Source: Deltaproteobacteria bacterium (lineage in GTDB: Bacteria > Myxococcota_A > Polyangia > JAAYKL01). Taken from it: a stretch of 64,000 nucleotides of DNA. Below are positions 3,893 to 63,619 of this stretch, one piece after another. The position numbers and the translations under genes are program-made. Below the pieces are notes generated by a model. It did no database searches, had not been told where the DNA came from, and saw only the letters and a program-made list of their open reading frames with translations. How positions within the stretch are numbered: position 1 is the first letter of the stretch; each line of letters starts with the position of its first letter. The stretch is from assembly GCA_016936575.1 (NCBI GenBank), contig JAFGXQ010000013.1, positions 2,835-66,834 of the forward strand. The letters are read 5' to 3'.

Positions 3893-5788
3893 CTACTCCG
3901 CGACAATCTGGCGGCAGGAGGCAGGGCAGGTTTTGTCGTTGAGGGTATTGCCGTCGTCGCAGTCTTCGAAACCTTCCTGCACGATGCCGTCACCGCAGTA
4001 TTCGTCCATTTTGCAGTTTTCGCCGCATTCCCCGTAGCCGCCGTCGTTAACGCCGTCATCGCATTCTTCGCCGATACCGATTTCGCCGTCGCCGCATACC
4101 GGTCGACACTCCGAGCGGGAGGTGCTGAAACCGCTGAGGGTCAACTTGTAGCTTGAACCGTTGGTCTGCCGTTCCGCCTGGAACACAACAATTTCATAAA
4201 CCTTTCCATCTTCCAGTCCCAGGTCGTTGATGGTCACGCTGCTCTCCAACGGAATATGCACGCCGCCCAAATCCACTTCCAGTCGTCCGTTGATAAATAC
4301 CCATACGTCATCATCGCCCAGGAACGTAAGCACCTGCTGTTTGCCGGCGTCGTATTTGAACCAGAAACGCACCTCGCTGGTAAAATGGAAATTGTGCGAG
4401 AGACTGTAGCCGTCGGGAAGGGCTAAACCCGCCTCTTCGGTGGCAACATCTTCAGCCTGCCAATTGGCGTAGGGCGGTGCGGTGCCGGCGGTACCGTATT
4501 CACTGGTGGCCGTTGTGCCCAGCCCGTCCAGCGGGAAGAAGAAGGGGTCACCGTCAAACTTCTCAATGGAAGCGCAGCAGTACGAACCGGCGGAACCGCG
4601 GCACGCGTCGGTGTAAATATCTGCACAATTGTTACAGTTGCTCGCATTGGTGAGATCACACCACTCTCCGTCGCTTTCATTGCAGCACCAATCTCCCCAC
4701 ACCCACAACTGCCACTGCTCCCCGTCGTCTCCCCAGCGGTTACAGAAGTCACCGGTTCCGGTGGCATACAATTTGAGTGACGACACAACAATCGCGCTTT
4801 TGTCGGAATGGTCGTACCAGTCTTCAAACGCATCTGAGTAGCCGCACGCGGTTTTCAATGTGCCGTCGGTGTCGTTCTCGCCCCCATACCCTTCGGTCAC
4901 TTCTTTGAGGAATACAGGTTTGCCGGCTGAGTTCAGTTCGTCCTGAATCATTCCGGTGGCTATGCCGTCACAGCCGGTCAGGTTCCGTTCAAAGTCCGGA
5001 TGACTCGACGAAAAATCCTTATACACAACCGGAACCTCAATCATCCCCGTCGCCACATCGGGCTGGGTGCAGGTGTAACCGGGTTCCTCGATACAGTCGG
5101 CGCTGCAGCCGTCGCCGCTCGTATTGTTGCCGTCGTCGCATTCCTCATCGATAATGAGGCCGTCACCACAGCTCGACGTACAGCCGGCGGTACCGGCACA
5201 CACGGGCTCCAACTGGCAATTAATATCACAACCGTCCGCCGGAAGCGTGTTGCCGTCGTCACAGGTTTCGGCGCCTTCAAGAATGTTGTCGCCGCAAACG
5301 GTGGGTACGCATGTACTGGGGCTGGCGCCGTCGCATTTGTACCCCACTTCAACCATACACAAGTCGTTGCAGCCGTCGCCACGGGTGATATTGCTGTCGT
5401 CGCATTGCTCGGGAAAAATGATAACGCCGTCACCGCAAAGCGCTACCGGGTGACAGGGTTGTCCGGGAGGGTTACACGACCATCCTTCCTGCACCAGACG
5501 GCAGTTGCCCGAGCAACCGTCGCCATCTTCCATGTTTCCGTCGTCGCAGGCTTCGTCCGAGTTCAGCTCTCCGTCACCGCAGTTTTCTGTGGGCGGAAGA
5601 TTCTCAATGTACTCGGTGGAGTCGGTGTCCGATGTTGCGGGGTCGGTGCCATCGGTATCGTTCGGGTTGTTGTCTCTACCGGTGCCCAATGCCTGATCTT
5701 TTTCGCAATGCAGGGCGAGCACGGCAACACATAAAATCAGTAATGCGTGGTCAATGCGTAGCAATTTAACGTACCTCATATGTTTCAA
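3893..5788 (-). CDS. secreted cysteine-rich repeat protein (Myxococcus-type CxxxCDDGN repeats) with central PA14/fibro-slime-like domain
   Basis: 631 aa. Signal peptide with lipobox-like ALHC. At least eight CGDG...E.CDDGN repeats. Central segment (…VRFWFKYDAG…TFLGDDDVWVFINGRLEVDLGGVH…) resembles PA14/fibro-slime domain. Confidence 0.7.
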   Translation of the reverse strand: MKHMRYVKLLRIDHALLILCVAVLALHCEKDQALGTGRDNNPNDTDGTDPATSDTDSTEYIENLPPTENCGDGELNSDEACDDGNMEDGDGCSGNCRLVQEGWSCNPPGQPCHPVALCGDGVIIFPEQCDDSNITRGDGCNDLCMVEVGYKCDGASPSTCVPTVCGDNILEGAETCDDGNTLPADGCDINCQLEPVCAGTAGCTSSCGDGLIIDEECDDGNNTSGDGCSADCIEEPGYTCTQPDVATGMIEVPVVYKDFSSSHPDFERNLTGCDGIATGMIQDELNSAGKPVFLKEVTEGYGGENDTDGTLKTACGYSDAFEDWYDHSDKSAIVVSSLKLYATGTGDFCNRWGDDGEQWQLWVWGDWCCNESDGEWCDLTNASNCNNCADIYTDACRGSAGSYCCASIEKFDGDPFFFPLDGLGTTATSEYGTAGTAPPYANWQAEDVATEEAGLALPDGYSLSHNFHFTSEVRFWFKYDAGKQQVLTFLGDDDVWVFINGRLEVDLGGVHIPLESSVTINDLGLEDGKVYEIVVFQAERQTNGSSYKLTLSGFSTSRSECRPVCGDGEIGIGEECDDGVNDGGYGECGENCKMDEYCGDGIVQEGFEDCDDGNTLNDKTCPASCRQIVAE

Positions 5789-21482: not shown

Positions 21483-21669
21483 GTCAAGTTCAGAAAAGCC
21501 GAATATCAAGGCAACCATTTAAAAACAAAACGACCGATACAAACCGCTTTTAAATCGTTTTCGCATCAAGTACGATGGACAACAACCTTAAATACACAAT
21601 CATGCGCTTTGCCCGACAATTTCATGCCCGGCAAAAAAATGCATGGGACGCCCTACTGAAAGGAACAAA

Positions 21670-23751
21670 ATGAGCTTTTTAAAACTTATCCTTATTTCTT
21701 TTTGCGCACTTTTCACCATGACCGCTTGCACCGACGAACCGACCGGGGCTCCATTTACAGCGTTCCCGAAACCGGTGCAGGCGCAGTATGCGAAATATTA
21801 CAACTCTCCCAATGACTTTTACGAATTGGACCGTTCGGGCACACTGGGCAATCAAGCCACCGGGGCGCTGTACTGCGAGCAACGCAGCGGGGGAGAAATC
21901 ATTTATACCGATTCGGGCAATGCGGTGCGGGGAACCTGCGGTCTGGCCTTTGTATCGCCACACTACGCCATCACCGCCGCACATTGCGTGGACGTAGACT
22001 CCTGCGGCTATCCGGGTGTTACATTCAAAGTTCGACAATTTGACATTCGCGAGTTGGATGAGTCTGTGCTGGACGACGTATTCACCCTGTCCAATGTGCT
22101 GAATCCCGAATTCGAGACCTGGCAGCCGAATCACTTTCTGACTGATTCAGATGGATACCACTACAATGAGTATGAATGCAGCGTGGAAATTTTGTGTGAC
22201 AGCGCCGGCAATTTCGGACGACGCAACGGTGACATTTGCCAGTTGAACGGCACGTCTTTCTATCGCGACATCGCGCTGGTGCATTGCCCGAATCGCGCAG
22301 ATGACGGCCCATACCTGGAAGTGGCGCCCAGCGTCAACCCCGGCGACAATGTTCTGGTGCACTGGTTTCACGAAATCGTCAATCTCCCGTTGCCTGAAAA
22401 CTGTACAGCGCCGGAATGCGCCAATGCCAACGCGTTTTACAGCTTGCGGTCATCGATGGCGAACAACTTTCACTACATGGGGTTTGATTCCACCCGGGAA
22501 ACGCAGCTGATGCCGCTCATCACGGTGGCTTGGGGACGAAACGACACCGAGACTGATACAGAAACATCCGTTCAAAGCTCCGTGCCGCCGGAGTTGGTCG
22601 AAAACACGCATGCATTGCTCTCGACCGATACCTTCTACGCCAACACCGACATCTGGGGATGCCACGGCATATCCGGTTCCGGCTTACTGGTAGTGGGAGA
22701 TGACGGTGTGGAACGATATGTGGGCCCTGCGCAGCTCGGCTCCTACACCTCGTCCTTGGACACCAATCTATGCGAAACTTCTGATGCGGTGCCGGGACAG
22801 GAAATGCTCCGTTTCGGGCAGTCTTACTATTCCGCAGTATTGGCAGCGTGGGCATTGACGAATGATCCCGCGCTGAATGTAGACACGGATACATCCGCGG
22901 ACAGTGATACTGCGCCAGATACAGACACATCGACAGATGCAGACACCGACAGCGACACCGATTCCGATTCCGATTCCGATTCCGATACCGATACCGATTC
23001 CGATACCGACAGCGACACCGATTCCGATTCCGATTCCGATACCGACACCGATTCCGATTCCGATTCCGACAGCGACACCGATTCCGATACCGATACCGAT
23101 TCCGATTCAGACAGTGACAGCGACACAGACACAGACTCCGATTCAGATTCAGATACCGACTCAGATACTGATTCAGATACCGATACCGATTCCGACGCGG
23201 ATACTGATTCAGATACTGATTCAGATACTGATTCAGATACCGATGCCGATTCCGACGCGGATACTGATTCAGATACCGATGCCGATTCCGACGCGGATAC
23301 TGATTCAGATACCGATGCCGATGCCGACGCGGACACTGATTCAGATGCCGACGCAGATTCCGACGCGGATACTGATTCAGACACTGATTCAGATACCGAC
23401 ACCGATGCCGACGCAGATACTGATTCAGACACCGACTCAGATACTGATTCAGATACCGATGCCGACACAGATTCCGACGCGGATACTGACGCAGACAGCG
23501 ACGATGGCCCGCCTTCGTCAGATTCGGACTCCGGCGGGTTGACCGATTCAGATTCGTCAACAAATACCGGTTCAGATTCGTTGCCGAATGCAGATTCAGA
23601 ACCATTGATGGATAGCGACACAGGTGAAACGCTTGCTGATGAAGAAGATGTTCACACCGAAGAGTCGTGCGGCTGTATGGTTCCGGGAATGCCTACTGCT
23701 CAGGATTCCGATTTACTGAATCTGATGATTCGGCTGTTTACCAATTCGTAG
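21670..23751 (+). CDS. S1 (trypsin-like) serine peptidase lipoprotein with long C-terminal acidic D-S/T/A repeat region
   Basis: ORF 21643..23751. Probable start [20 protein letters not shown] (lipobox). His motif YAITAAHCV, Asp in RDIALVHC, Ser region [11 protein letters not shown]. Then about 220 aa of DSDTD/DADTD repeats and a short C-terminal tail. Confidence 0.65.
22879..23563. repeat. low-complexity GAY-WCN hexanucleotide-type repeat encoding poly(Asp-Ser/Thr/Ala)
   Basis: Seen directly. Produces stop-free ORFs in several frames on both strands, which are artefacts. Confidence 0.8.
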
Positions 23752-39565: not shown

Positions 39566-40303
39566 TCAAAACGCGGTGGCGGTATACGTGGCGGAAAGGT
39601 TTCGCGGGTCGTAGCAGAACTGGGCACCCGTCTCGCCGATGCAGGCGTATTGGGTGGCTTCGCCGCTCAGCACCGGATCCGTCTCATCCGTGCGGCACTC
39701 GGAATTATCGGCACATCCCTTGGCACATACTTTTGATGAGAGATTCGCGTCTCCCACGATGGTAGCCGCGACCACATCCATCTCAATCAGCACCGTGCCT
39801 GCGGGGCAGCTCGTCATAGCATCGAAATCACCGTATTCAGCAGTGGCGCACACCAAATCGTTGCCGGTGCAGTTGGCCATCGCCTGAATGGCGCAATAGC
39901 CGTTTGCAAAAAACACATCATTGGCCATGGTACCGCTGTACGTGCGCAGGCAAACCACACTGCCTCCGAATTCTGTCGAAACATCGTCGCATCCGATAAT
40001 TCCTTCTCCTCCGTTGGGCAAAGGGACCGTCGCCGACTCACAGGTCGTACCCACGCAGGTACACGCCGAACCGATGGTCTGGTCCGCAGTGAATGCAGTA
40101 TCCACATCGGAGTCGGTTCCACTGTCGGTTCCCGAGTCAGAGCCGGTATCGGTGTCCGTATCGGTATCAGAATCGGTGTCTGTGTCGGTATCGGTATCGG
40201 CGTCGCCGTCGCTGTCCCCGGATTCATCATCGCCACAGGCGCCCAGTCCGAAAGACGCAACCAGCAGCGAAACCAATAACAATAAATAAAAATGAATTTT
40301 CAT
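39566..40303 (-). CDS. acidic-repeat lipoprotein with Cys-rich C-terminal domain
   Basis: ORF 39566..40354. Probable start MKIHFYLLLLVSLLVASFGLGAC (lipobox). DTDTD repeat stalk. C-terminal domain of about 180 aa with about 14 Cys, ending ...TYTATAF. Confidence 0.6.
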   Translation of the reverse strand: MKIHFYLLLLVSLLVASFGLGACGDDESGDSDGDADTDTDTDTDSDTDTDTDTGSDSGTDSGTDSDVDTAFTADQTIGSACTCVGTTCESATVPLPNGGEGIIGCDDVSTEFGGSVVCLRTYSGTMANDVFFANGYCAIQAMANCTGNDLVCATAEYGDFDAMTSCPAGTVLIEMDVVAATIVGDANLSSKVCAKGCADNSECRTDETDPVLSGEATQYACIGETGAQFCYDPRNLSATYTATAF

Positions 40304-40412
40304 AATCAACATCCTTTGTTTTGCATGAATTATGGTGATGCCATCATACAACAAATGAAAAATGAAAATAAAAAAAATGCACTCGGTAGGTGAGAGAAGA
40401 AATGACGTTCAG

Positions 40413-52787: not shown

Positions 52788-53810
52788 ATGAAAAAACTAC
52801 TCATCCTTCTTTTAAGCCTCCTGGCCCTGGTTGCATTCAGCTGCAGCGACTCAGGATCATCGGGAGAAAGCGATGGAGATGCGGATTCCGACTCAGATGC
52901 GGATTCGGATTCCGACACAGACTCAGATTCGGATTCGGATACGGATTCTGACTCAGACACCGACTCGGATACGGACACCGACGCGGACACCGACGCGGAC
53001 ACTGACACTGACACCGACGCAGACACTGATGCCGATACCGACGCCGACACCGACACCGACACTGACGCGGATACGGATTCCGACACAGATTCAGATACCG
53101 ACACCGATGCCGATTGTGCCTATAACTGCGCCGGAAGCGAACAGGCGTGTGAAAATGGGTGGGGTGTCGAAGCCGGTAGCGTAGTGGATGGCGACTGCGT
53201 GGTTGTCGGCGGCCCCAATGACGGCGAAGACGGTTTCTGCTGCATGCCTGCCGGTGCAGACGGCGATACCGATAGCGACACAGACTCGGATACCGATGCC
53301 GATACCGATACCGACGCCGATACCGATGCCGATACCGACGCCGACACAGACTCAGATGCCGACTGTGCATATGATTGTGCCGGTAGTGAGATGGCGTGTG
53401 AAAATGGATGGGGTGTCGAAGCGGGTAGCGTAGTGGATGGCGACTGCGTCGTTGTCGGCGGTCCAAATGACGGTGAGGACGGTTTCTGTTGTATGCCGGC
53501 CGGTGCAGACGGCGACACCGATAGCGACACCGATTCGGACACCGACTCAGACACAGACGCCGACACTGACGCCGACACTGACGCCGACACTGACGCGGAT
53601 ACCGACGCCGACACCGATTCAGATGCGGATTGTACATCCTGTCACGACCTTCCTCCAGGTGGCCGTCCTCACGACAATACACATAATGAATTCTCGTGTA
53701 ATGATCCCGACTGCCACGGCGGTGTGGTGAGCGCTGACGGCTCCACAATCGTCGATGACAGCCTCCATATGGACGGCTCAAGCAACGCGGCATGTAACAA
53801 CTGCCACTAA
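52788..53810 (+). CDS. acidic-repeat lipoprotein with two duplicated Cys-rich modules and C-terminal paired-CxxCH (putative c-type heme-binding) module
   Basis: 340 aa. MKKLLILLLSLLALVAFSCSDSG lipobox. Three DSD/DTD/DAD repeat tracts. Two near-identical about 60 aa six-Cys modules. C-terminus CTSCHDLPPGG...CNDPDCHGG...CNNCH. Confidence 0.65.
   Translation: MKKLLILLLSLLALVAFSCSDSGSSGESDGDADSDSDADSDSDTDSDSDSDTDSDSDTDSDTDTDADTDADTDTDTDADTDADTDADTDTDTDADTDSDTDSDTDTDADCAYNCAGSEQACENGWGVEAGSVVDGDCVVVGGPNDGEDGFCCMPAGADGDTDSDTDSDTDADTDTDADTDADTDADTDSDADCAYDCAGSEMACENGWGVEAGSVVDGDCVVVGGPNDGEDGFCCMPAGADGDTDSDTDSDTDSDTDADTDADTDADTDADTDADTDSDADCTSCHDLPPGGRPHDNTHNEFSCNDPDCHGGVVSADGSTIVDDSLHMDGSSNAACNNCH
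53110..53610. repeat. tandem intragenic duplication (two about 250-bp units, about 85-90% identical)
   Basis: Seen directly. Each unit encodes DCAY(N/D)CAGSE(Q/M)ACENGWGVEAGSVVDGDCVVVGGPNDGEDGFCCMPAGADGDTDSD plus an acidic repeat. Confidence 0.6.
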
Positions 53811-53990
53811 ATCCCCCCTACTTCGTTACTCTCTGCACCCCCTGAAAATTTTGTTCTAACTGAGCGCCGTTCGGAATAAATCCAGTCACGAATAGTTACT
53901 CCCTCTTTTTTTTTTCACAAAAACGCGATTTGTCTCCCATTACACATAGAAGAACTCGAAGTTTTTTTTCACACACACAAGGAGAAGATT

Positions 53991-54499
53991 TTGAAAAAAC
54001 TACTCATCCTTCTTTTCAGCCTGCTGACCCTGGTTGCGCTGAGTTGCAGTGATTCAGGAACAACAGGCGGTGGCGATGGAGACACAGACGGTGATGCCGA
54101 CTCAGACAGTGACGGTGACGGAGACGCAGACAGCGATACCGATTCTGACACTGATAGTGATACCGACTCTGATACCGACTCTGATACCGACAGCGACACA
54201 GACGCTGATACCGATTCGGATTCAGACCCAGTCTCATGTGATACATGCCACGGAAATCCACCCGGCGGCAGCCCCCCCCCCACAACCGGTCTGTCCATCT
54301 GAGCTTCGGCTGCAACAACCAGAACAACCACGGAGATATGATCGACGCGGCGGGAACCGTGATTCTGGACGATACTCTCCACCAGAACGGAACCGTCGGC
54401 ACCACCTGCGGCTCAGGCGGGACCGGCTGCCACCGATTTCAATTTCGTTTACCCCGCGCCGTTTTTCCATTCGCATTTCTGACAATCACGTATATTTGA
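53991..54499 (+). pseudogene. paralog of the 52788 lipoprotein interrupted by a frameshift at a C10 homopolymer tract (54272..54281)
   Basis: Frame A (53991..54302) encodes lipobox, DSD stalk and CDTCHGNPPGG, then terminates. Frame B (54245..54499) continues with PPPHNRSVHLSFGCNN...DDTLHQNG...GTGCH, homologous to the paralog tail (RPHDNTHNEFSCND...DDSLHMDG...CNNCH). Adding 1 C (C11) or removing 2 (C8) would restore a single frame. Confidence 0.5.
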
Positions 54500-54573
54500 G
54501 CTGCTTTGGTCGCATAAATGCACCATTATACTTTGTTCTGCGGGGCTTTTTGCAAACGAAACATCACCCGCAA

Positions 54574-56397
54574 ATGGAAAACAACATGAATAATTTAATA
54601 AAAATCAATATTGTCGTCGGTTTTGTCTTTTTCACAACTAGTTGCATTATGCCGCCCCGGGGCGTGGAAACGCCTCCGATCAAGCCGCTTCCGGACATTG
54701 CGGAACACACAGTGCGTGTGAATCAGGTGGGCTATTTTCCGAATCGCAAAAAAATCGCCGCCTACCGGAGCGACTCTCAGACACCGCTTTCGTGGCAACT
54801 GTTCGACAACAAACAGAAAAAAATCGCTGAAGGCAAAACAACCCCTATCGGGCTCGATGACGACTCCGGGGAGCATGTCCATCTTATCGACTTTTCAACA
54901 ACACAGGTGGAAGGCACCGGTTTCACATTGCGCGTCGGAAATGAAAAATCCGTACCGTTTGCCATTTCATCAAAACTCTATGAGGGTCTTCGACGGGATG
55001 CCGTGCGCTATTTTTATATGAACCGCAGCGGTATTCCGCTTGAGATGCCGTACGTGGAAGATCCATCGGCAGAGCGGGACGCCGGCCACCTCAGCGACAA
55101 AAGTGTGCGGTGTGAAACCGGACAAAAATGCGACTACCGCAAAGATGTTTCCGGAGGGTGGTACGACGCCGGGGATTACGGGAAATACGTGGTGAACGGT
55201 GGTATCAGTGTTTGGATGCTGATGCATATTTACGAGTTTCTGTATGTGAACCGAACCCCGCATACCCAGCCGAAAAACCTGAATATTCCGGAAAGCACCA
55301 ATGATGTACCCGATATTCTGGATGAAGCGCGCTACGAGATGGAATGGATGCTGAAGATGCAGGTGACCGACAAGGAACAGGAATTCTACGGCATGGTACA
55401 TCACCGTGTTCGAAATTCTGAATACACCGCCATGGGGAAGGCGCCCCCGGAGGTAAACGTGGATCCGCCTCGTTATCTTCGAGACGTGGCAACCAGCGCG
55501 ACCCTCAATCTTGCGGCCACCGGTGCGCTTTGCGCCAGAGTCTTCAAACCGTTCGATGATGCATTTGCACAGAAATGCCTGGACGCCGCCGAACTGGCAT
55601 GGACCGCTGCCAGAATGCACCCATCCGAGCGTGCGGTAGGCGTCGGCTTCGTTCCGTACCAGAATCCCGATGTATCGGACGATTATTTCTGGGCCTCAGC
55701 GGAGCTGTGGGTCGCCACCGGAAAAACCGCCTACTACAACTTCATTCTTCAATCTCCCTACTATGAAAAATTCACCCATCGTGCCGGCGGCAGTACCTCG
55801 GCATTCAACTGGGCGGACACCGATGGTCTGGGCGCTGTTGCGCTGGCCACCTGCAGTAGGCCGGAAAAACCGGAGTTGGTCGAAAAGAAACAGCAGCAGC
55901 TCATTGCATTTGCAGATAGCCTGCTCGCGCTGATGGAAAAACAGGGGTATCGATTTCCGCTGGACAAGCGAACATATCCGTGGGGGTCGAATTCCTTCAT
56001 CGTAAACAACGCGGTGGTGCTCGCGGTGGCATACCGATTAACCAGCGAAGATAAATACCTGGACGGCGCCATCGTCGCGGTCGACTACATTCTTGGCCGC
56101 AATCCCCTCGACTTTTCGTATGTCAGCGGTTACGGCACCCTGGCGATGCAGTTTCCGCATCATCGATTTTTCGCACCGTCTTACAACAACAAACTGCCGT
56201 TCATTCCACCGGGAACCCTGGCGGGCGGCCCCAATACCAATCTGCAGGACAGCACCTCCCGCAGCTTTCGCGCAGGGTGTCCGCCGGCAAAATGTTATGT
56301 GGATCATATCGAAGCATACGCCACCAACGAAGTTGCCATCAACTGGAATGCCGCGTTGGCCTGGATAGCCATCTACCTCGACGAAACCGCCCGTTGA
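54574..56397 (+). CDS. glycoside hydrolase family 9 endoglucanase with N-terminal Ig-like (CelD_N) domain, lipoprotein
   Basis: Start MENNMNNLIKINIVVGFVFFTTSC (lipobox). GH9 signature GGWYDAGDYGKY. Catalytic region NEVAINWNA at the C-terminus. The 5' part of ORF 54049..56397 is read-through of upstream repeat DNA. Confidence 0.85.
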   Translation: MENNMNNLIKINIVVGFVFFTTSCIMPPRGVETPPIKPLPDIAEHTVRVNQVGYFPNRKKIAAYRSDSQTPLSWQLFDNKQKKIAEGKTTPIGLDDDSGEHVHLIDFSTTQVEGTGFTLRVGNEKSVPFAISSKLYEGLRRDAVRYFYMNRSGIPLEMPYVEDPSAERDAGHLSDKSVRCETGQKCDYRKDVSGGWYDAGDYGKYVVNGGISVWMLMHIYEFLYVNRTPHTQPKNLNIPESTNDVPDILDEARYEMEWMLKMQVTDKEQEFYGMVHHRVRNSEYTAMGKAPPEVNVDPPRYLRDVATSATLNLAATGALCARVFKPFDDAFAQKCLDAAELAWTAARMHPSERAVGVGFVPYQNPDVSDDYFWASAELWVATGKTAYYNFILQSPYYEKFTHRAGGSTSAFNWADTDGLGAVALATCSRPEKPELVEKKQQQLIAFADSLLALMEKQGYRFPLDKRTYPWGSNSFIVNNAVVLAVAYRLTSEDKYLDGAIVAVDYILGRNPLDFSYVSGYGTLAMQFPHHRFFAPSYNNKLPFIPPGTLAGGPNTNLQDSTSRSFRAGCPPAKCYVDHIEAYATNEVAINWNAALAWIAIYLDETAR

Positions 56398-56520: not shown

Positions 56521-57207
56521 ATGGGGGGCAATATGACACAGATTTCGGATATATGTGACCGGTATACGCACGCGGTTTTCAACACAGACCAGGATACGGC
56601 GCAAGATACCATTTACCAGGCGCTGAATGAAGGACTACTGGCCGAAGAACTGGTCTTCAATGTTATTTTGCCGTCTCTGGAAAACATGCTCGAAACGTTG
56701 GTTCAGAACGACAACGCAACGTTGTCGCAACATTTTATCGCCGCCAAGGTATCGAGCGCAATGGTCGAAATGTTGCTTCCCAAATTTTCTGGGACCGCCC
56801 ACGCAAACGGAGTTGTGGTTATCGGCACCGCTCGGGGTGACTTTCACGGGCTTGGTAAAAAAATCGTTTCGGGCTGTCTGACCGCCAACCTGTTTACCGT
56901 TTATGACGTGGGGCTCAACGTGCAACCGGAGCGGTTCGTACAGGAGGCGCTGCAAAAAAACGCCTCTGTCATCGCGGTTTCGTCAATGATGATGCACACC
57001 GCAATCGGCGATGACGGGCCAAAAAGAATAAAAAAACTACTGCAGGACCGGCAGCTGACCGACCGTATCAAACTGATCGTCGGAGGCGCACCGTATCGAT
57101 TCGACGACAAGCTGTACCGCGATGTGAATGCCGATGCCACGGCATTGGATGCACTTTCTTCGGTGGCGGTATTCAAGCACCTGGTTCAGGAGGTGCGTCA
57201 TGCCTGA
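56521..57207 (+). CDS. cobalamin (B12)-binding corrinoid protein (MtaC/MtbC-like: B12-binding_2 helical cap plus Rossmann B12-binding domain)
   Basis: 228 aa. DxHxxG motif in GDFHGLGKK followed by S..LS-type and GG motifs (SSMMMHT, VGGAP). Start may be the internal MTQIS. Confidence 0.75.
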   Translation: MGGNMTQISDICDRYTHAVFNTDQDTAQDTIYQALNEGLLAEELVFNVILPSLENMLETLVQNDNATLSQHFIAAKVSSAMVEMLLPKFSGTAHANGVVVIGTARGDFHGLGKKIVSGCLTANLFTVYDVGLNVQPERFVQEALQKNASVIAVSSMMMHTAIGDDGPKRIKKLLQDRQLTDRIKLIVGGAPYRFDDKLYRDVNADATALDALSSVAVFKHLVQEVRHA

Positions 57208-58237
57208 TTCGATGAGCCTCTTTGGAAAATTGATGAACGGAGAGCTTCCCAGCCGGGTTCCGGTGGCGCTGAATCTCTTCGACCAGGGCCAGAAAGAACT
57301 ACGCCTCACCAGCGAACAGTACTATAGCCGTGCGGAAAATGTGGTCTCCGGACAGCTTGAACTGCGAAAAAAATACGGCCATGATGTGGTGTGGGGAACC
57401 CACTATGTCGCCCGCCAGGCGGAGATTCTCGGTTCCCGCCGTACCATTTTTCCAACCAACGGCCCCCCGAACGTGGGCGATATGGTGATAAAAACACACA
57501 AGGACATCGAGACACTGCAAATTCCGGACGATGTGACAGAACATCCGTCATTCACCATTCAACTCGACACCATTCGCATGCTCAAGCGTGAACTGAACGG
57601 CAGCGCACCGGTATGCGCATTTCAAACCGGCACATTCACTCTCCCTTCCATTCTAATGGGCATTCATGCGTGGATGGACTTATTTTTAACCGGCCCCCCA
57701 TCGCTGGTAGACGAGCTACTGACAAAATGCTCGGAATATACCATAAAAACTTTTTCGGCGCTTAAAGAAGCCGGCGCGACGCTGGTAGCCTACGCGAATC
57801 CGATGGTGTCCACCGACTTTTTCTCTCTGCCGCAAATTACAGAACGCTGTCTGCCGTGGGTTAAGCGGGATATGACGCGCATGGGCACAGACGGTCTGGT
57901 TTATTTTTGCGGTGGTTCTCGCATCAACGGCGTGCTTCCCGAAATACTGAAACGCACCACCATCGGTGCATTCCTCGTGCACCCGCAAGACGATGTGGCA
58001 CACGCCAAAGCATTGGTCGGCGGCAAGGCACTGGTCGCCGGAGCGATCAATGATATTCAGCTCATCCGATGTACACCGGAAGAAGCACGTCAGAGCACAA
58101 AAGAGATAATCGAAAAAGGCGCGCCTGGCGGAGGGTTTATTTTAAGCTCCCTCGTGATGCCGTTTCAAATTCCAACTCAGAATATACATGCGGTGGTCGA
58201 TGCGGCACATCAATACGGCGCCTACGAAGCGACCTGA
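57200..58237 (+). CDS. uroporphyrinogen decarboxylase (URO-D) family protein, MtaA/CmuA-like corrinoid methyltransferase
   Basis: ORF 57128..58237. Probable start MPDSMS overlapping the corrinoid protein gene end by 8 nt. TIM-barrel URO-D-like sequence, lacking the uroporphyrinogen-specific context. Confidence 0.75.
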   Translation: MPDSMSLFGKLMNGELPSRVPVALNLFDQGQKELRLTSEQYYSRAENVVSGQLELRKKYGHDVVWGTHYVARQAEILGSRRTIFPTNGPPNVGDMVIKTHKDIETLQIPDDVTEHPSFTIQLDTIRMLKRELNGSAPVCAFQTGTFTLPSILMGIHAWMDLFLTGPPSLVDELLTKCSEYTIKTFSALKEAGATLVAYANPMVSTDFFSLPQITERCLPWVKRDMTRMGTDGLVYFCGGSRINGVLPEILKRTTIGAFLVHPQDDVAHAKALVGGKALVAGAINDIQLIRCTPEEARQSTKEIIEKGAPGGGFILSSLVMPFQIPTQNIHAVVDAAHQYGAYEAT

Positions 58238-58241
58238 TGCG

Positions 58242-58850
58242 ATGAACCACTCTCGCGCCACTCGAATGATCAGCTGCAGCATTCTGAAAAAGGAGGTGCT
58301 GCATGTTCTGAAACGCCGTGAAGGTGCAGTCGATATTACATTCCTGCCGTCGTCTCTTCACAACGACCTCGACAAACTTTCCGCGCGACTAAACGACGCA
58401 ATGGGACGCTTCAACGCGCCCACAGTGGTACTCTACGGCACTTGTCATCCTCAGATGGACAAATTCATCTCTCACCACAACGCCCAAAGGATTCCCTGTC
58501 AAAACTGTATTGAACTCCTGCTGGGAGCTGAACAGTATACCCAATACCTCGCTGACGGCGCGTTTTTCCTGTTGGAGGAATGGGCGCATTCATGGGAAAA
58601 AAACATCGCCGCTGCACTGGGAGCGAATATCGCTGCAAGAAACGCTCTTCTCCGCGATTCGCATCAATACCTGTTATGCGTGAACACACCCTGCTCCCGA
58701 GATTTTTCAGTTCAGGCGAAAAACATCGCGAAACAAACTGATCTGCCGATTCGGTCCCTTGATGTAGAACTCAATTATCTGGAGAACGTCTTTGACCAAA
58801 TACTGATGGTCGGTGACCGTTCTTCCAAAGGAGTAATGCGTAATGAATGA
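58242..58850 (+). CDS. DUF1638-like protein
   Basis: ORF 58188..58850. Probable start MNHSRATRMIS. Cys-containing motifs (GTCHPQ, CQNC). This family is recurrently encoded next to corrinoid protein/MtaA-like pairs (established knowledge, from memory). Confidence 0.5.
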   Translation: MNHSRATRMISCSILKKEVLHVLKRREGAVDITFLPSSLHNDLDKLSARLNDAMGRFNAPTVVLYGTCHPQMDKFISHHNAQRIPCQNCIELLLGAEQYTQYLADGAFFLLEEWAHSWEKNIAAALGANIAARNALLRDSHQYLLCVNTPCSRDFSVQAKNIAKQTDLPIRSLDVELNYLENVFDQILMVGDRSSKGVMRNE

Positions 58851-60603
58851 ATGTACCAATTGCAGCAAGCTCCAAAAAGAGATTGAGTATCAGAAGCAGC
58901 GAATTGACAGGATCGCCAAAGAAAAATCTCATCTGCAACTGGTTGCCGACATTCTTTCCGATCTGGCGAAACTGCACGGAGTAAAAGCCATTGCCAATCA
59001 CACCCTCGCCTTTCTGATGAATTCCATCGGCGGCACCAATTTATCCTTCTACTACACAACCGATAAGTCGTGGCAGATGATTGACGTATACGGCAATGAA
59101 AAAGAAATGACATATCCGGAAGACCCTGACGTCTTGAGAGCAATCGACGAAAAAAAATTTCACGGAATACAAACCCAGGGCGAAGAAAAAGGCTATTTCA
59201 CATTCAACGTGGGAAAAAGCCGATTTGAAAAGTGGGTGTTTCCGCTTTGTGTCGAAGAAGAGGTATTCGGTGCATTCGTCGTGGATGGACTGCTCATTCA
59301 TCTTCATGACGCCATTATCGAACAGCTGCATATCATCAGTACGTATATCAGTCTGGTTGTCAAAAACGAATTTCTGACAGAGTCGCGACTGAAAAAGGCC
59401 AACGATGCACTGATACAAAAAAACATTGCGCTGATGAATGAAATTGACCAGCGCACAAGACTGGAGCGGGAGCGAGAAAAGCTGTATCAGGAACTACAGC
59501 AGGCCCAGAAAATGGAAGCGATTGGTACGCTGGCCGGCGGCATCGCGCACGACTTCAACAATCTGCTCGGCGCTATCATCGGATACACCGACCTGGCGAT
59601 TGACAACTGCACCGACGATGAATCTCACTTCAATCTCGATCAGGTGATGCAGGCAGCGGAACGGGCAAGAGACCTGGTGAAGCAGATTCTAACTTTCAGC
59701 CGCAAACAGGACACCAAGAACGCACCGATATACATCGCACCGGTGGTGAAAGAAGTAATGAAATTATTGCGCGCGACCATTCCCACCACCATCATCATAC
59801 AGGTAAGTATCGACAAGCAGTGCGGCGCAATATTGGGAAATGTGACTCAGCTTCACCAGATTATAATGAATCTATGCACCAATGCGACGCATGCGATGGA
59901 GGAAAATGGCGGAACCCTGCGTGTATCCCTCCGCCCCATTGAACCGCAAAACAAAAAAGGTGAAAAATCACTTCAGCTACAGATAAGCGATACCGGCTGC
60001 GGGATTCCCCAAGATGTTCTGCCTCGAATTTTTGAACCGTATTTTACCACCAAAGGAATCGGTAAAGGAACTGGAATGGGTCTCGCTGTGGTTCATGGAA
60101 TCGTATTGTCGATGAACGGAACCATCACTGTCTCATCTGAACTCGGAAAAGGAACCACCATCGAATGCACCTTCCCCATCGTCGATGGGGACGTCCGCGA
60201 CAGCGAACCACCCGTGGAACAGCACCCGACCTTCACCGGTGTTGCCATGATCGTGGATGACGAATCTTCCATTGCAGATCTTGCACAACAAATGCTGACC
60301 AAAATGGGATTCACCTGTGAAACATTTCAAAACGGGATGAATGCCCTGGACGCGTTCCGCGCTGATCCGAAAAAATACACTCTGGTACTGACGGACCAGA
60401 CCATGCCCGGCATCACCGGTATGCAGTTGTCTGAAAAACTGTTTTCCATAAAAAACGTACCGGTTCTGATTTCATCGGGATACAGCACCTCTATCGACGA
60501 AGAAAAAGTCGCCGCACAACCGAACATGGAATTTCTGGCCAAGCCGTATACCTACAAGAAACTAGAAAAGGTAATCTCCGACCTGCTGAGCGACTCTCCC
60601 TGA
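58843..60603 (+). CDS. cytoplasmic hybrid sensor histidine kinase (GAF-like N-domain, HisKA, HATPase_c, C-terminal receiver)
   Basis: 586 aa. Start overlaps the previous gene by 8 nt. H-box [12 protein letters not shown]. HATPase DTGCGIP / GTGMGLAV. Receiver VAMIVDDE...[13 protein letters not shown]. No TM segments. Confidence 0.8.
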
Positions 60604-60727
60604 ATCAGGAGCCGCTATTCAATTCATTTTTCGGCGAACACGAACACGCTCGCAAAAAAAATGAACCGTTTACCCACCCAAAGAACTCAATTGATGCAGT
60701 GCAACCGAAACGGCAAGGAGACGGCAA

Positions 60728-62077
60728 ATGGAACGAAACGATTTTCTAATACCCCGATTTTTTACTATCATAACATTATTATTATCGATGATAACAGTCA
60801 TCGCCTGCTCTGTTGAGGAGGGGCAGATAGATAAGGCTTCCGATGCGGACTCAGACACGGATACTGACTCTAACTCTGACTCTGATACAGATACAGACTC
60901 TGATTCTGATAGTGATGCAGATGCGGATACAGACACCGACGCAGACAGCGACACCGACTCTGACGCAGACAGCGACACCGACTCTGACTCTGACAGCGAC
61001 ACCGACTCTGACTCTGACAGCGACACCGACTCTGACTCTGACTCTGACTCTGATACAGATACAGACTCTGATTCTGATAGTGATGCGGATGCGGATACAG
61101 ACACCGACGCAGACGCAGACACCGACGCAGACACCGATACAGATACCGACGCTGACACCGATACAGATACCGATGCAGATACCGACGCTGACACCGATAC
61201 GGATACCGACGCTGACACCGACTCGGACGCCGATGCAGACACCGACACGGACTCTGATAGTGATGCGGATGCGGATACAGACTCAGATACGGACTCGGAC
61301 ACTGACTCTGATACTACGATCAATTGCGAGACCATCGCCCATCCGGGCAGCGTCGGTCCGCTGGACGTAAATAGTTACAGCGCAGGGTTACGTGACGGAC
61401 CGGACTACGGTTCGCAGACCATGCATGCACCGGTCGGAGATGGGGAATTCCCTGCTATCGCAATTGTACCCGGTTACATGTCGTACGAATCATCCATTTC
61501 GAGCTGGGGACCCTATTTCGCATCCCACGGCATTGCAACGCTGACTATCGGCACTAACAGCATCATGGATCAACCGCCCGCCCGCTCCGCTGCGCTGCTT
61601 GACGCTATCGACACCATTCGTGCAGAAAATGAGCGCCCGGACAGCCCGTTGTATCAACAAATTGATCTCACAAGGCTCGGCGTCATGGGGTGGTCAATGG
61701 GCGGAGGCGGTACGCTCATTACCGTCAACAGTCACCCCGAGCTCAAAGCTGCCATTACCCTATGTGCGTGGAACCCGGGTCAAACCTATCCAAACAATTC
61801 TGTCCCTACATTATTATTCGCCGGGACGGCCGATACCCTCGCGGGAGGGCAGTCTCAGGGGTTCTACACCAGCATTCCCGATACCACCCCAAAGATGCTT
61901 TTCGAAGTGGCCGGCGCCGACCATTTCTTTGCCAATTCTCCAACCGGCGCAAACAATCAGACCGGCTTGTACGGCACAGCCTGGTTAAAAGTGTTTCTTG
62001 CCGGAGATGAATGCTATCGTCCATTTCTGCTGGCCCCCCCCGGCGGCACATCGGATTTCAGAACGAACGTGGAATAA
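60728..62077 (+). CDS. acidic-repeat lipoprotein with C-terminal cutinase/PETase-like polyesterase domain (alpha/beta hydrolase)
   Basis: 449 aa. Lipobox ITVIAC. About 165 aa DSD/DTD/DAD stalk. Catalytic domain with GWSMGGGG nucleophile motif, Asp in GTADTLA and His in GADHFFAN, plus AWNPGQT. These closely resemble the Thermobifida cutinase / Ideonella PETase family as recalled. Confidence 0.75.
60836..61328. repeat. GAY-WCN repeat encoding poly(Asp-Ser/Thr/Ala) stalk
   Basis: Seen directly. Generates artefactual ORFs 60670..61335(-) and 60843..61370(+). Confidence 0.8.
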
Positions 62078-62188
62078 CACATATCAAAATCAAAAAGGTG
62101 ACTACCACCTTCACTTTTTTGAACCGTCCAGCCGTACTTCGGGCTCAATCCTATTGTATAAAGCCACCAACCCGCAAGGAGATGCACC

Positions 62189-63619
62189 ATGAAAACATGC
62201 CAGCACCAGGGAATGACCGTATTATTTCATTTACTATGTATTATGACGTTCACAGCCGTTTTGTCCGGTTGCTCTGTAGACAGCGGTGAAGTCGAGTCCG
62301 AGACCGACGCAGACGCGGATTCAGATGGGGATACAGATTCTGACGCGGATACAGATTCTGACGCAGATGCGGATTCCGATGCGGACGCAGACTCAGATGC
62401 AGACGCAGACGCCGACTCAGACGCGGATTCTGACGCGGATTCAGACGCGGACTCAGATACGGATTCAGATGCCGACTCAGACGCGGATTCAGATACGGAT
62501 TCAGATGCCGACTCAGACGCGGACTCAGATACGGATTCAGATGCCGACTCAGACGCGGACTCAGATACGGATTCAGATGCCGACTCAGACGCAGACTCAG
62601 ACGCGGATTCTGATGCGGACTCGGACGCAGACTCTGACACAGACTCAGATACGGACTCGGATGCAGACTCGGACGCAGACTCAGATACGGATTCTGATGC
62701 GGACTCGGACTCAGACACAGATTCTGACACTGACGCGGATACGGACACGGATTCTGATAGCGATGCGGACTCGGACTCAGATGCAGACACAGATTCTGAC
62801 ACCGATGCGGACAGTGATTCTGATACCGATGCGGACTCGGATTCTGATAGCGATTTTACCGCCGATCCCATCATTCCCGAGATCACCGGCGATTGTCCAG
62901 ATTTTGAAACCGGTACCATCACATACATGGGATTAAGCGGTATTTCCCTACAGGTGGGAGACTTGGGGTCTGGCGACGGCGCCATTCTCTTTTATTGGCA
63001 CGGTACCGGTTCCAGTTCCGCTGAGGTCACCTTTATGGTACCGAGCAGTGTGCGAAACGATATTTTGAATCAGGGCGGAATCATCGTCGCTTTTGACGGC
63101 TCGCTGGGAACCGGCGGCGACTGTTCCGGCACCGCCACGTTCAGCAAAGACGACTTCAACATCGCCGACCAGATTGTTGCCTGTGCGATTCGCGACCACA
63201 ACATCAATCCTCGTCGTGTGTATACCACCGGCTGCAGCGCTGGAGGACTTCAATCCGGATGCATGGGCGCCCTCCGTTCCAACTATGTTGCAGCGACAGT
63301 ACCCAACTCGGGAGGGCTGGTATTTCCTCAATCCATACAGAATGATGCACACACACCCGCGGTAATGACGATGCACGGCGGTTCTTCCGACTGGGTGGGA
63401 GTATCTTTCGCAAGCACCAGCGCCACATATGATGCAATGATGGACAATGCCGGCAGTTTTGTTGTGAATTGTGATCATGGGGGCGGACACTGTCAGGCCC
63501 CATCCGAACTGTATGAAGCGGGCTGGCAATTCATGAAGGCACATCCCTTCGGAGTCGATCCATTCCCGTGGGAAACCGGTCTCGTAGGTTTTCCGGATTA
63601 TTGCGCCATATACGAATAG
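62189..63619 (+). CDS. acidic-repeat lipoprotein with C-terminal alpha/beta-hydrolase esterase domain (LpqC/PHB-depolymerase-like)
   Basis: 476 aa. Lipobox LSGC. About 190 aa DSDAD repeat stalk. Esterase domain with FYWHGTGSS, nucleophile GCSAGG (GxSxG) and MHGGSSD. Subfamily assignment is tentative. Confidence 0.65.
62287..62865. repeat. GAY-GCN/WCN repeat encoding poly(Asp-Ser/Ala/Thr) stalk
   Basis: Seen directly. Generates artefactual ORFs 62227..62985(-) and 62286..62936(+). Confidence 0.8.

Follow-up and report, generated by a model that had tools for sequence, protein, structure and literature searches.

A 449-residue open reading frame in the 64,000-nucleotide stretch of Myxococcota DNA analysed here (the window) encodes a PETase-like protein, and our preferred reading, to which we give a probability of roughly 0.6, makes this protein a serine polyesterase, or a cutinase-like esterase, of family PF12740 that is anchored in the outer membrane and held on a disordered polyanionic spacer. 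The frame was found exactly at the position and on the strand given in the original prediction, and YGTAWLKVF and the other motifs quoted there are all present in its translation (Table 1). Most probably, the enzyme would attack the ester bonds of polyesters that are hydrophobic and insoluble, at the cell surface, close to it or on vesicles of the outer membrane; its substrates could be cutin and suberin from plants, aliphatic polyesters of microbial or synthetic origin and, by promiscuity, PET-like material.

Table 1. Features of the PETase-like gene and its surroundings (positions in the window)
Feature	Position	Strand	Basis or remark
PETase-like ORF	60728..62077	+	intact, 449 aa; translation
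Shine-Dalgarno-like AAGGAG	60715..60720	+	7 nt 5' of ATG; direct reading of sequence
Terminator-like hairpin and T-run	62095..62121	+	18 nt past stop codon; consensus match only
Predicted type II signal peptide, aa 1-26, and Cys27	60728..60808	+	lipobox pattern
Short acidic tether after Cys27	60809..60841	+	translation; +2 Ser, +7 Gln
Asp-X dipeptide array, aa 39-196	60842..61315	+	79 units; translation
PF12740 PETase/cutinase-like alpha/beta-hydrolase domain, aa 197-449	61316..62074	+	Pfam, PDB matches, AF2, Foldseek
Cys200	61325..61327	+	candidate disulfide partner of Cys429
Tyr250, oxyanion/binding residue	61475-61477	+	alignment
Ser323, nucleophile in G-W-S-M-G-G	61694..61696	+	=IsPETase S160
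Trp348, subsite 'wobbling' Trp	61769..61771	+	=IsPETase W185
Asp369, catalytic acid	61832..61834	+	=IsPETase D206
His399, catalytic base	61922..61924	+	=IsPETase H237
Cys429	62012-62014	+	candidate disulfide partner of Cys200
Neighbouring esterase gene	62189..63619	+	lipobox LSGC/S, Asp-X array of about 190 aa, distant alpha/beta-hydrolase esterase

Catalytic domain and its relatives

The assignment of the C-terminal domain to the cutinase/PETase type, as originally predicted, is borne out by several comparisons. Residues 209-439 matched positions 22-248 of the 263-position Pfam profile PF12740 (E 4.5e-59; 200.4 bits against a cut-off of 28), and among the PDB sequence matches (n=178; quoted E values 1e-46 to 1e-55, the best 8.7e-55) all those listed are PETases, cutinases or polyesterases and not unrelated alpha/beta hydrolases. 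The AF2 model of the domain (pLDDT 94.2, pTM 0.92) was superposed by Foldseek on 7pzj (PET30), 8air (RgCutII) and 6ane (IsPETase) with TM scores of 0.91-0.92 and rmsd values of 1.5-2.0 Å.

Active-site residues were assigned by alignment to IsPETase, LCC and TfCut2. The Ser, Asp and His named beforehand as the catalytic triad align with the triads of all three enzymes and are invariant in 43-44 homologues, and the predicted subsite Trp is conserved as Trp348. Ser323 is preceded by Trp322, equivalent to IsPETase W159, and followed by the oxyanion-hole residue Met324, while Tyr250, Met324 and Trp348 together form the Tyr-Met-Trp binding motif of IsPETase and LCC (naming from PMC8767016). The extended beta8-alpha6 loop has the length of that in IsPETase, three residues more than in LCC and TfCut2, and the equivalent of IsPETase N241 is conserved; a clade-specific loop following Asp369 lacks two residues relative to IsPETase, a deletion that may reshape the cleft around Trp348. 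Judged from homology and the model, His399 and Asp369 would activate Ser323, the backbone amides of Tyr250 and Met324 would form the oxyanion hole, and Tyr250, Trp348 and Trp322 would make up the aromatic clamp by which cutinases and PETases seat the polyester chain.

The best sequence match (8.7e-55) and best fold match (TM 0.91, 38% identity) is PET30 from Kaistella jeonii (PDB 7PZJ; PMC8767016), which has the same PF12740 fold and Ser-Asp-His triad, likewise has no active-site disulfide, and carries an extra module for cell-envelope targeting, which makes it a precedent for a cell-associated PETase-like esterase. However, that module is a C-terminal T9SS (PorC) sorting domain, in place of the N-terminal lipobox and repeat linker seen here; moreover, PET30 keeps the disulfide C262-C285 and has the motif Phe-Met-Tyr, whereas the window protein has Tyr-Met-Trp and neither canonical disulfide. 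In the alignment, Gly366 and Phe401 occupy the positions of IsPETase C203 and C239, Leu435 aligns with C273, and the chain stops short of the C289 position. The C-terminal disulfide, kept in IsPETase, LCC (C275-C292), TfCut2 and PET30 (PMC8767016), is missing throughout the Myxococcota clade. Because both canonical disulfides are missing, stability and activity should not be assumed from homology. Cys200 and Cys429 co-occur in every full-length member of the nearest subclade (four sequences: the window protein and its nearest MAG orthologues, L001-L003), and three partial sequences (P0001-P0003) retain the Cys, 200 or 429, of whichever end remains. No other homologue bearing the GWSMGG motif has a Cys at either position, and position 429 is Arg in about 90% of 42 aligned homologues. 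Cys200-Cys429 is thus a candidate subclade-specific disulfide, with the pairing inferred, that may stand in for the lost canonical ones.

The original prediction also described the family as one of Actinobacteria and a few Proteobacteria, a view that is out of date: hundreds of homologues were found, mostly in Polyangia/Myxococcota, that combine a lipobox, a low-complexity linker of 80-170 residues and a PF12740 domain. This lipobox and linker arrangement occurs in most of 120 homologues and in at least 57 of the best 150 representatives of the 50% clusters. Polyangia/Myxococcota lipoproteins annotated as 'dienelactone hydrolase' (for example P0009, P0025 and P0092, the last from Sorangium sp. 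So ce1182) share 53-64% identity with the window protein, for those aligned or listed, together with the GGQSQGF loop and the lack of canonical disulfides; their linkers, in contrast, are rich in Gly, Ala, Ser, Thr and Pro or only partly acidic, and most of the homologues inspected have Phe at the oxyanion position (consensus VPGF), where the window protein has Tyr. The orthologues L001-L003 (76-78% identity) share the Cys200/Cys429 pair and an adjoining second esterase, but carry Gly/Thr/Ala repeats such as (TGGxxA)n, in genomes of 72-74% GC. The Asp-X dipeptide array was absent from the best 150 cluster representatives. As read from these sequences, predicted tethering is the norm in this clade and not a rarity, and the stalk stands out only by its Asp-X chemistry. 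The catalytic domain is conventional, and the protein is a rather unremarkable representative of the many uncharacterised tethered esterases in myxobacteria. For PF12740 enzymes of the myxobacterial or lipoprotein kind, the literature search yielded bulk mining surveys as the sole sources that mention Myxococcota/Polyangiaceae matches.

The identity of 76-78% to genomes of such high GC raised recent horizontal transfer from Polyangiaceae as a candidate, which was rejected because the GC of the catalytic-domain DNA (0.56) and its GC3 (0.60) both match those of the other genes in the window. With a GC3 typical for the window, the gene is native to this genome; an ancient transfer is still compatible with the GC data.

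Predicted lipid anchor and Asp-X stalk

Both the lipoprotein signal and the acidic repeat that had been predicted were recovered. The signal peptide contains Arg3, Arg10, a hydrophobic core and the lipobox V-I-A-C; by pattern inspection only, ITVIAC27/S, with the core preceding it, fits [LVI][ASTVI][GAS]C, and in the full-length model residues 11-20 form a helix. The charged side chains of the n-region (E2, R3, D5 and R10) give no net positive charge, which counts against an anchor. Myxococcus lipoproteins provide precedent for sorting to the matrix and the outer membrane, and in M. xanthus a Lys at +2 leads to inner-membrane retention and an Ala at +7 to matrix sorting (PMC3222651). The window protein has neither residue. 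Given the absence of the Lys+2 retention signal, the lipoprotein would be passed on to the outer membrane; its lipidation, outer-membrane location and surface exposure are all inferred.

The array that follows consists, uninterrupted, of 78 Asp-X dipeptides (32 DT, 28 DS and 18 DA) and one Asn-Ser. Together with the short tether it gives residues 28-196 a net charge of about -80, and residues 28-200 are predicted to be disordered, with no secondary structure and pLDDT values of 45-57 in the full-length model. The underlying DNA contains tandem repeats with a period of 6 (71% match) and a 24-nt unit present in 4.1 copies (97% match), and an antisense ORF at 60670..61335 (SESVSESV...) was dismissed as the mirror image of the Asp-X repeat DNA. 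Since Asp occupies 78/79 odd positions of the array, while the period matches at only 71% and the X position is filled by 13 different codons, the pattern points to selection at the protein level and not to DNA slippage alone. The 158-residue array would act as a long, disordered polyanionic spacer, pushed off the anionic envelope, that puts up to tens of nanometres between the catalytic domain and the lipid anchor; it may also bind divalent cations.

Staphylococcal Ser-Asp repeats are thought to hold a functional domain away from the cell, and the stalks of the MSCRAMMs SdrC, SdrD, ClfA and ClfB resemble the one described here in being long dipeptide arrays in which Asp alternates with a small hydroxyl residue. 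Homology to these Sdr/Clf adhesins was nevertheless rejected. The NCBIfam matches are compositional and cover the repeat only (aa 33-206), with 104-116 bits against cut-offs of 999-2500, and the translation contains neither an LPXTG motif nor an adhesin A domain. In addition, the MSCRAMMs are linked to the cell wall at their C terminus, whereas an N-terminal lipid anchor in a diderm host is predicted here. On this evidence the two kinds of stalk are alike in composition and by analogy, and not by homology.

Five further ORFs in the window combine a lipobox with an Asp-X array, making six of this design in total, and by pattern inspection equivalent lipoboxes precede those five arrays and a GH9 cellulase. 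That cellulase was itself considered as an Asp-X stalk protein and rejected, as its long version starting at 54049 is an out-of-frame read-through; it possesses a separate lipobox near 54580 and lacks the repeat. The label 'fibrolytic' for the lineage rests on this GH9 lipoprotein. The gene directly downstream of the PETase-like gene encodes a second stalked esterase with a GCSAGG motif, of the PHB-depolymerase / LC-Est1C type, and the PETase-like enzyme probably acts together with it. A 35%-identical homologue of this neighbour adjoins the PETase-like gene in L001-L003. The second esterase is kept in the nearest subclade only, with an AraC regulator in between; a conserved operon was rejected as a clue to the substrate, as the genes next to the homologues in Sorangium and on another Polyangia contig are unrelated.

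Alternative readings

The alternative that survives best, although we consider it clearly less probable than a surface polyesterase, is an outer-membrane lipoprotein esterase or lipase that faces the periplasm or a vesicle lumen and acts on soluble esters, acylglycerols or prey lipids, with the Asp-X array as a linker for Lol trafficking. PF12740 also includes true lipases (Streptomyces exfoliatus, Moraxella), the best PDB sequence match was deposited as 'Lipase', and myxobacteria are predators. A disordered linker at the N terminus is likewise typical of outer-membrane lipoproteins that face the periplasm, and about half of the outer-membrane lipoproteins of E. coli have one that is important in sorting (bioRxiv 10.1101/2021.01.05.425367). 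However, a 158-residue linker with a charge of about -80 far exceeds what a periplasm of about 25 nm would need, and the clamp of Tyr-Met-Trp and Trp322 is tied to polymer binding in PETases and cutinases (PMC8767016). The other Asp-X lipoproteins of the window, moreover, include likely extracellular degradative enzymes, and the GH9 lipoprotein has to reach an insoluble substrate.

A bolder interpretation, which we regard as doubtful, takes the combination of Asp-X array and lipobox as the mark of a surface-display system peculiar to this lineage of uncultured Myxococcota. The array would then be a polyanionic, cation-binding stalk and perhaps an export signal too, degradative enzymes would be displayed outside the outer membrane, and the two neighbouring esterases would make up a cell-bound pair for degrading polyesters, based on a PETase scaffold free of disulfides. 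The set of enzymes envisaged comprises the PETase-like and PHB-depolymerase-like esterases, a protease-like protein and Cys-rich or haem-motif proteins, and the likeness of such a system to staphylococcal SD-repeat stalks or Bacteroidota surface lipoproteins is one of analogy. No Asp-X arrays were found in relatives within a small sample, which comprised the 22 kb surrounding DnaK in the closest named MAG and the other loci compared.

We consider it very improbable that the protein is a dedicated PET hydrolase of the IsPETase type, adapted to plastic. The domain does share the extended loop and the equivalents of Tyr87, Trp159, Ser160, Met161, Trp185, Asp206, His237 and Asn241 with IsPETase, and the TM score to it is 0.92; within the group of IsPETase (type IIb), RgCutII (8AIR) and the Burkholderiales cutinase 7CWQ, TM scores are 0.90-0.92 and identities 38-41%. 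Against this reading, identity to IsPETase itself is only about 38%, Phe400 replaces Ser238, and the C203-C239 disulfide is missing, a loss reported to abolish IsPETase activity (PMC8767016). The C273-C289 disulfide and two residues after the Asp loop are likewise absent relative to that group, whose three members are free secreted enzymes with neither anchor nor stalk, whereas the window protein is predicted to be tethered. The match to the BHET hydrolase BdeA equivalog NF051441 in NCBIfam reached 172 bits against a cut-off of 520, indicating family-level similarity only, and the wide distribution of the clade among Myxococcota of soils and sediments speaks for a substrate among the natural polyesters. 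Low, promiscuous PET activity is possible.

Slighter still is the chance that mis-assembly created the repeat or that the gene is a pseudogene, in which case a conventional secreted esterase, or nothing, would really be made: although the source is a short-read MAG, low-complexity DNA also gives rise to antisense ORFs, and the PETase-like protein and its neighbours were not found by exact-sequence look-up in a collection of 15 billion proteins in which DnaK of the same contig was found, the frame stays open across 474 nt of repeat and links the signal peptide to a complete catalytic domain, the design is common to six ORFs, homologues have linkers of similar length in the same place, and the varied codons speak against a collapsed microsatellite. 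These look-ups were made for the PETase-like protein from either of two possible starts, for the esterase encoded next to it and for the upstream histidine kinase. The contig comes from a metagenome assembly of an uncultured Myxococcota MAG; as this was built from short reads and mis-assembly is possible, the exact number of repeats is not guaranteed.

Significance for polyester-degrading enzymes

PETase/cutinase-family enzymes have been heavily mined for plastic recycling, and to our knowledge almost all those characterised come from Actinobacteria, Proteobacteria or Bacteroidota and are secreted as free proteins. The gene described here does not overturn current understanding, but points to a large, unstudied myxobacterial clade with a predicted lipid anchor, long disordered linkers and neither canonical disulfide. 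The Asp-X stalk could serve as a ready-made polyanionic spacer in surface display. If active, the clade would represent a different scaffold, possibly one easier to express in the cytoplasm, and would provide an example of cell-bound, as opposed to broadcast, polyester degradation, which bears on the use of cutin and suberin by predatory, cellulolytic myxobacteria.

Family and active site of the catalytic domain

The original prediction placed a PETase/cutinase-like polyesterase on this ORF; its coordinates proved exact, and all of the quoted motifs were found in the translation. Pfam assigned the C-terminal domain to PF12740 (PET hydrolase-like), for which it scored 200.4 bits (E = 4.5e-59) where the cut-off is 28. 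A phmmer search of PDB sequences returned 178 matches, the best being 7pzj (8.7e-55; PET30 of Kaistella jeonii) and 7cwq (6.4e-53), with the entries for Ideonella sakaiensis PETase (IsPETase) at ~1e-48, and all PDB matches listed were PETases, cutinases or polyesterases. An AlphaFold2 model of the catalytic domain, built from a 44-sequence alignment, had a pLDDT of 94.2 and a pTM of 0.92, and its Foldseek overlay on PET30 (7pzj), RgCutII (8air) and IsPETase (6ane) gave TM scores of 0.91-0.92 and an rmsd of 1.5-2.0 Å at 38-41% identity. Together with the aligned triad and subsite Trp, these results bear out a PETase/cutinase-type domain, and the family assignment is well supported.

The sequences of the alignment references IsPETase, LCC and TfCut2 (the latter two being cutinases) were compared with published residue numbers; IsPETase agreed at 21/21 positions checked, and LCC and TfCut2 agreed at their triads. 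The beta8-alpha6 loop has the same length as in IsPETase (type II), and the loop right after the catalytic Asp, which is nearly invariant across the clade, carries a two-residue deletion. The binding motif, Tyr-Met-Trp in the vocabulary of PMC8767016, is the same as in IsPETase and LCC; by this motif and the residue map, the domain genuinely belongs to the family, and its active-site signature mixes type I and type II. An IsPETase-type enzyme was rejected on the basis of this mixed signature and of the BHET-hydrolase equivalog model (NCBIfam), for which the score of 172 bits fell well short of the cut-off of 520.

Features of the window and of the PETase-like protein (aa, protein positions; residue equivalences from the alignment)
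Feature	Position	Strand	Remarks
Protein with five myxobacterial Cys-rich acidic repeats	3893..5788	-	myxo_disulf_rpt (TIGR02232/DUF4215); fibro-slime domain (TIGR02148)
Asp-X lipobox ORF	21643..23751	+	weak trypsin-like match; C-terminal 188-aa array, then ..SCGCMVPG.. tail
Asp-X lipobox ORF	39566..40354	-
Asp-X lipobox ORF	52788..53810	+	two near-identical Cys-rich modules (DCAY[ND]CAGSE.ACENGWGVEAGSVVDGDCVVVGGPNDGEDGFCCMPAG) split by Asp-X blocks
Short Asp-X lipobox ORF	~53970..54302	+	CDTCH motif
GH9/CelD_N cellulase	~54580..56397	+	CelK-like, cellobiohydrolase-like lipoprotein; own lipobox ..FFTTSC
MtaA/CmuA-family (uroporphyrinogen-decarboxylase-like) methyltransferase homologue and overlapping 220-aa ORF	upstream, within 57128..58850/58843..60603	+/+
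Hybrid histidine kinase/response regulator	end 125 bp 5' of PETase-like gene	+
Shine-Dalgarno AAGGAG	60715-60720		7 nt 5' of PETase-like ATG
PETase-like ORF	60728..62077	+	449 aa, from ORF listing
Hairpin and T-run	62095-62121		3' of PETase-like stop codon
Neighbouring esterase	62189..63619	+	lipobox LSGC|S; ~190-aa Asp-Ser/Ala/Thr repeat; distant alpha/beta-hydrolase
Signal peptide	aa 1-27		hydrophobic core, lipobox V-I-A-C
Dipeptide repeat	aa 39-196		79 unbroken units: DT 32, DS 28, DA 18, NS 1
Globular domain	aa 197-449
Catalytic triad	Ser323/Asp369/His399		IsPETase S160/D206/H237
Oxyanion hole	Tyr250, Met324		IsPETase Y87, M161
Subsite Trp	Trp348		IsPETase W185
	Trp322		IsPETase W159; His in LCC and TfCut2
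	Asn403		IsPETase N241; conserved
	Phe400		IsPETase S238; Phe also in LCC and TfCut2
Active-site disulfide absent	Gly366/Phe401		IsPETase C203/C239
C-terminal disulfide absent	Leu435		IsPETase C273; chain stops before C289

The Asp-X linker and its homologues

The gene is compositionally native, and the GC (0.56) and GC3 (0.60) of its catalytic domain agree with other genes in the window. In the dipeptide array, Asp occupies 78 of the 79 odd positions while the X positions use 13 different codons, indicating that the regularity is maintained at the protein level. At the DNA level, Tandem Repeats Finder gave only a 71% match for the 6-nt period, and a recently duplicated 24-nt unit was present in 4.1 copies (97% match). 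The short tether and repeat (aa 28-196) have a net charge of about -80; in the full-length AlphaFold2 model, aa 28-200 lacked secondary structure (pLDDT 45-57), consistent with intrinsic disorder. Because five further lipobox ORFs in the window bear Asp-X arrays, the stalk is a lineage habit of exported lipoproteins rather than an adaptation specific to the esterase. The ORF at 52788..53810 also encodes C-terminal CxxCH motifs and gave a weak magnetochrome-domain match, and its product and that of the short CDTCH-bearing ORF may be tethered haem-binding proteins.

A word-indexed search returned 603 homologues, and when 1.84 billion cluster representatives were searched exhaustively, 1260 clusters matched at E<=1e-3, of which 163 reached E<=1e-30; the closest named homologues belong to Polyangiaceae and Polyangiales MAGs and to Sorangium sp. 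So ce1182. In most homologues inspected, a lipobox is followed by 80-170 low-complexity residues and then the PF12740 domain; of the 150 best representatives, at least 57 showed this layout in a conservative pattern test. The tethered architecture, originally presented as a departure from the family, is therefore much less unusual than supposed. The linkers themselves differ in chemistry, being mostly Gly, Ala, Ser, Thr or Pro-rich, with strongly acidic tracts directly after the Cys in some (for example, P0245, P0247 and P0375); neither a scan of the 150 best cluster representatives nor a full reading of individual homologue linkers turned up an Asp-X array. The nearest orthologues (76-78% identical), from three 'uncultured Polyangiaceae' MAGs (L001-L003), have (TGGxxA)-type repeats at this position. 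In their composition, the linkers appear to follow the GC of the genome, with linker presence and length conserved.

The window protein and its L001-L003 orthologues each carry both Cys200 (..INCET..) and Cys429 (..DECY..), and the truncated homologues P0001-P0003 have whichever of the two ends they retain. No Cys was found at either position in any other GWSMGG-bearing homologue, and position 429 is Arg in about 90% of 42 aligned homologues. This co-occurrence suggests a candidate subclade-specific disulfide that would join the N-terminus to the last helices.

Gene neighbourhood, host and public record

In the neighbouring esterase, the nucleophile elbow reads GCSAGG; matches to PHB-depolymerase-family, LC-Est1C and feruloyl esterases were weak, and no Pfam match exceeded the threshold. 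A second lipoprotein-linker-esterase near the PETase-like gene is also kept in L001-L003 (35% identity to the L001 neighbour); the two genes are 111 bp apart in the window and flank an AraC-family regulator in L001-L003, and more distant homologues have unrelated neighbours. The L001-L003 genomes have 72-74% GC, compared with 52% in the window, and in their esterase pair Gly/Thr/Ala repeats (for example, TGGEATGG) replace the Asp-X arrays. The 'fibrolytic' label given to the lineage gains some support from the GH9 lipoprotein, which most likely starts near 54580; a longer start (ORF 54049..56397, +) was rejected because it reads, out of frame, through the repeat of the preceding gene.

The window DnaK is 100% identical to MBN2344566.1/MBN2670272.1 (contig JAFGTB010000208.1, GCA_016934495.1, 'Deltaproteobacteria bacterium'), followed by DnaKs of 'Myxococcota bacterium' MAGs at 83-85%; these relatives and the myxo_disulf_rpt/fibro-slime protein point to an uncultured Myxococcota host of about 52% GC. 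In a collection of 15 billion proteins, no exact match was found for the PETase-like protein, the neighbouring esterase or the upstream histidine kinase, and the best match to the catalytic domain was 79%, whereas the DnaK of the same contig was present at 100%, indicating that the public record probably lacks an annotation of the PETase-like gene, for which the repeat may be the cause. For all three genes, the public MAG (JAFGTB010000208.1) may have no annotation or a different gene call. On the JGI contig of P0001 (79% identical), a truncated PETase call has a 357-aa minus-strand ORF without a Pfam match directly upstream of it, which suggests that gene callers mis-annotate such linkers. In the window, the antisense ORFs 60670..61335 (-) and 62227..62985 (-) (SESVSESV...) were dismissed as artefacts mirroring the Asp-X repeats.

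Proposed cell-surface display and its alternative

Homology and modelling show a lipobox-type signal, a long, disordered, polyanionic spacer and a cutinase/PETase fold that contains the full active site of a serine hydrolase. The protein would be exported by Sec, lipidated at Cys27 and cut by signal peptidase II. In M. xanthus lipoproteins, Lys at +2 leads to inner-membrane retention and Ala at +7 to the matrix (PMC3222651); the window protein, with Ser at +2 and Gln at +7, has neither, so transfer to the outer membrane would be expected, although the M. xanthus rules may not apply to this lineage. There, the linker would hold the catalytic domain away from the lipid anchor (158 residues have a contour length roughly estimated at about 55 nm, and realistic end-to-end distances are far shorter), and the enzyme could hydrolyse hydrophobic polyesters (cutin or suberin, for example) and might act promiscuously on synthetic polyesters. 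We assign this displayed polyesterase a probability of about 0.6. In its main rival, which we consider rather unlikely, the protein would be a lipoprotein esterase or lipase that faces the periplasm and whose linker serves Lol trafficking, a role that linkers have in E. coli outer-membrane lipoproteins (bioRxiv 10.1101/2021.01.05.425367). Sequence alone does not separate the two.

Within the family, PET30, which has a T9SS sorting domain, offers the nearest precedent of a cell-associated enzyme (PMC8767016), and the stalk resembles staphylococcal Ser-Asp repeats in composition only. The catalytic domain adds a new member to a known family, its closest characterised enzymes being 38-41% identical; unlike the characterised PETases and cutinases found, the protein has a predicted N-terminal lipid anchor and disordered stalk and lacks a canonical disulfide. 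Bulk mining surveys, the only literature found, name Myxococcota or Polyangiaceae as groups in which plastic-degrading gene matches occur (PMC13461043, PMC11915214), and none describes the lipoprotein clade. A putatively lipid-anchored PETase-like esterase is unsurprising in principle, and the gene usefully draws attention to an unstudied clade and to the Asp-X linker, a curious feature found lineage-wide.
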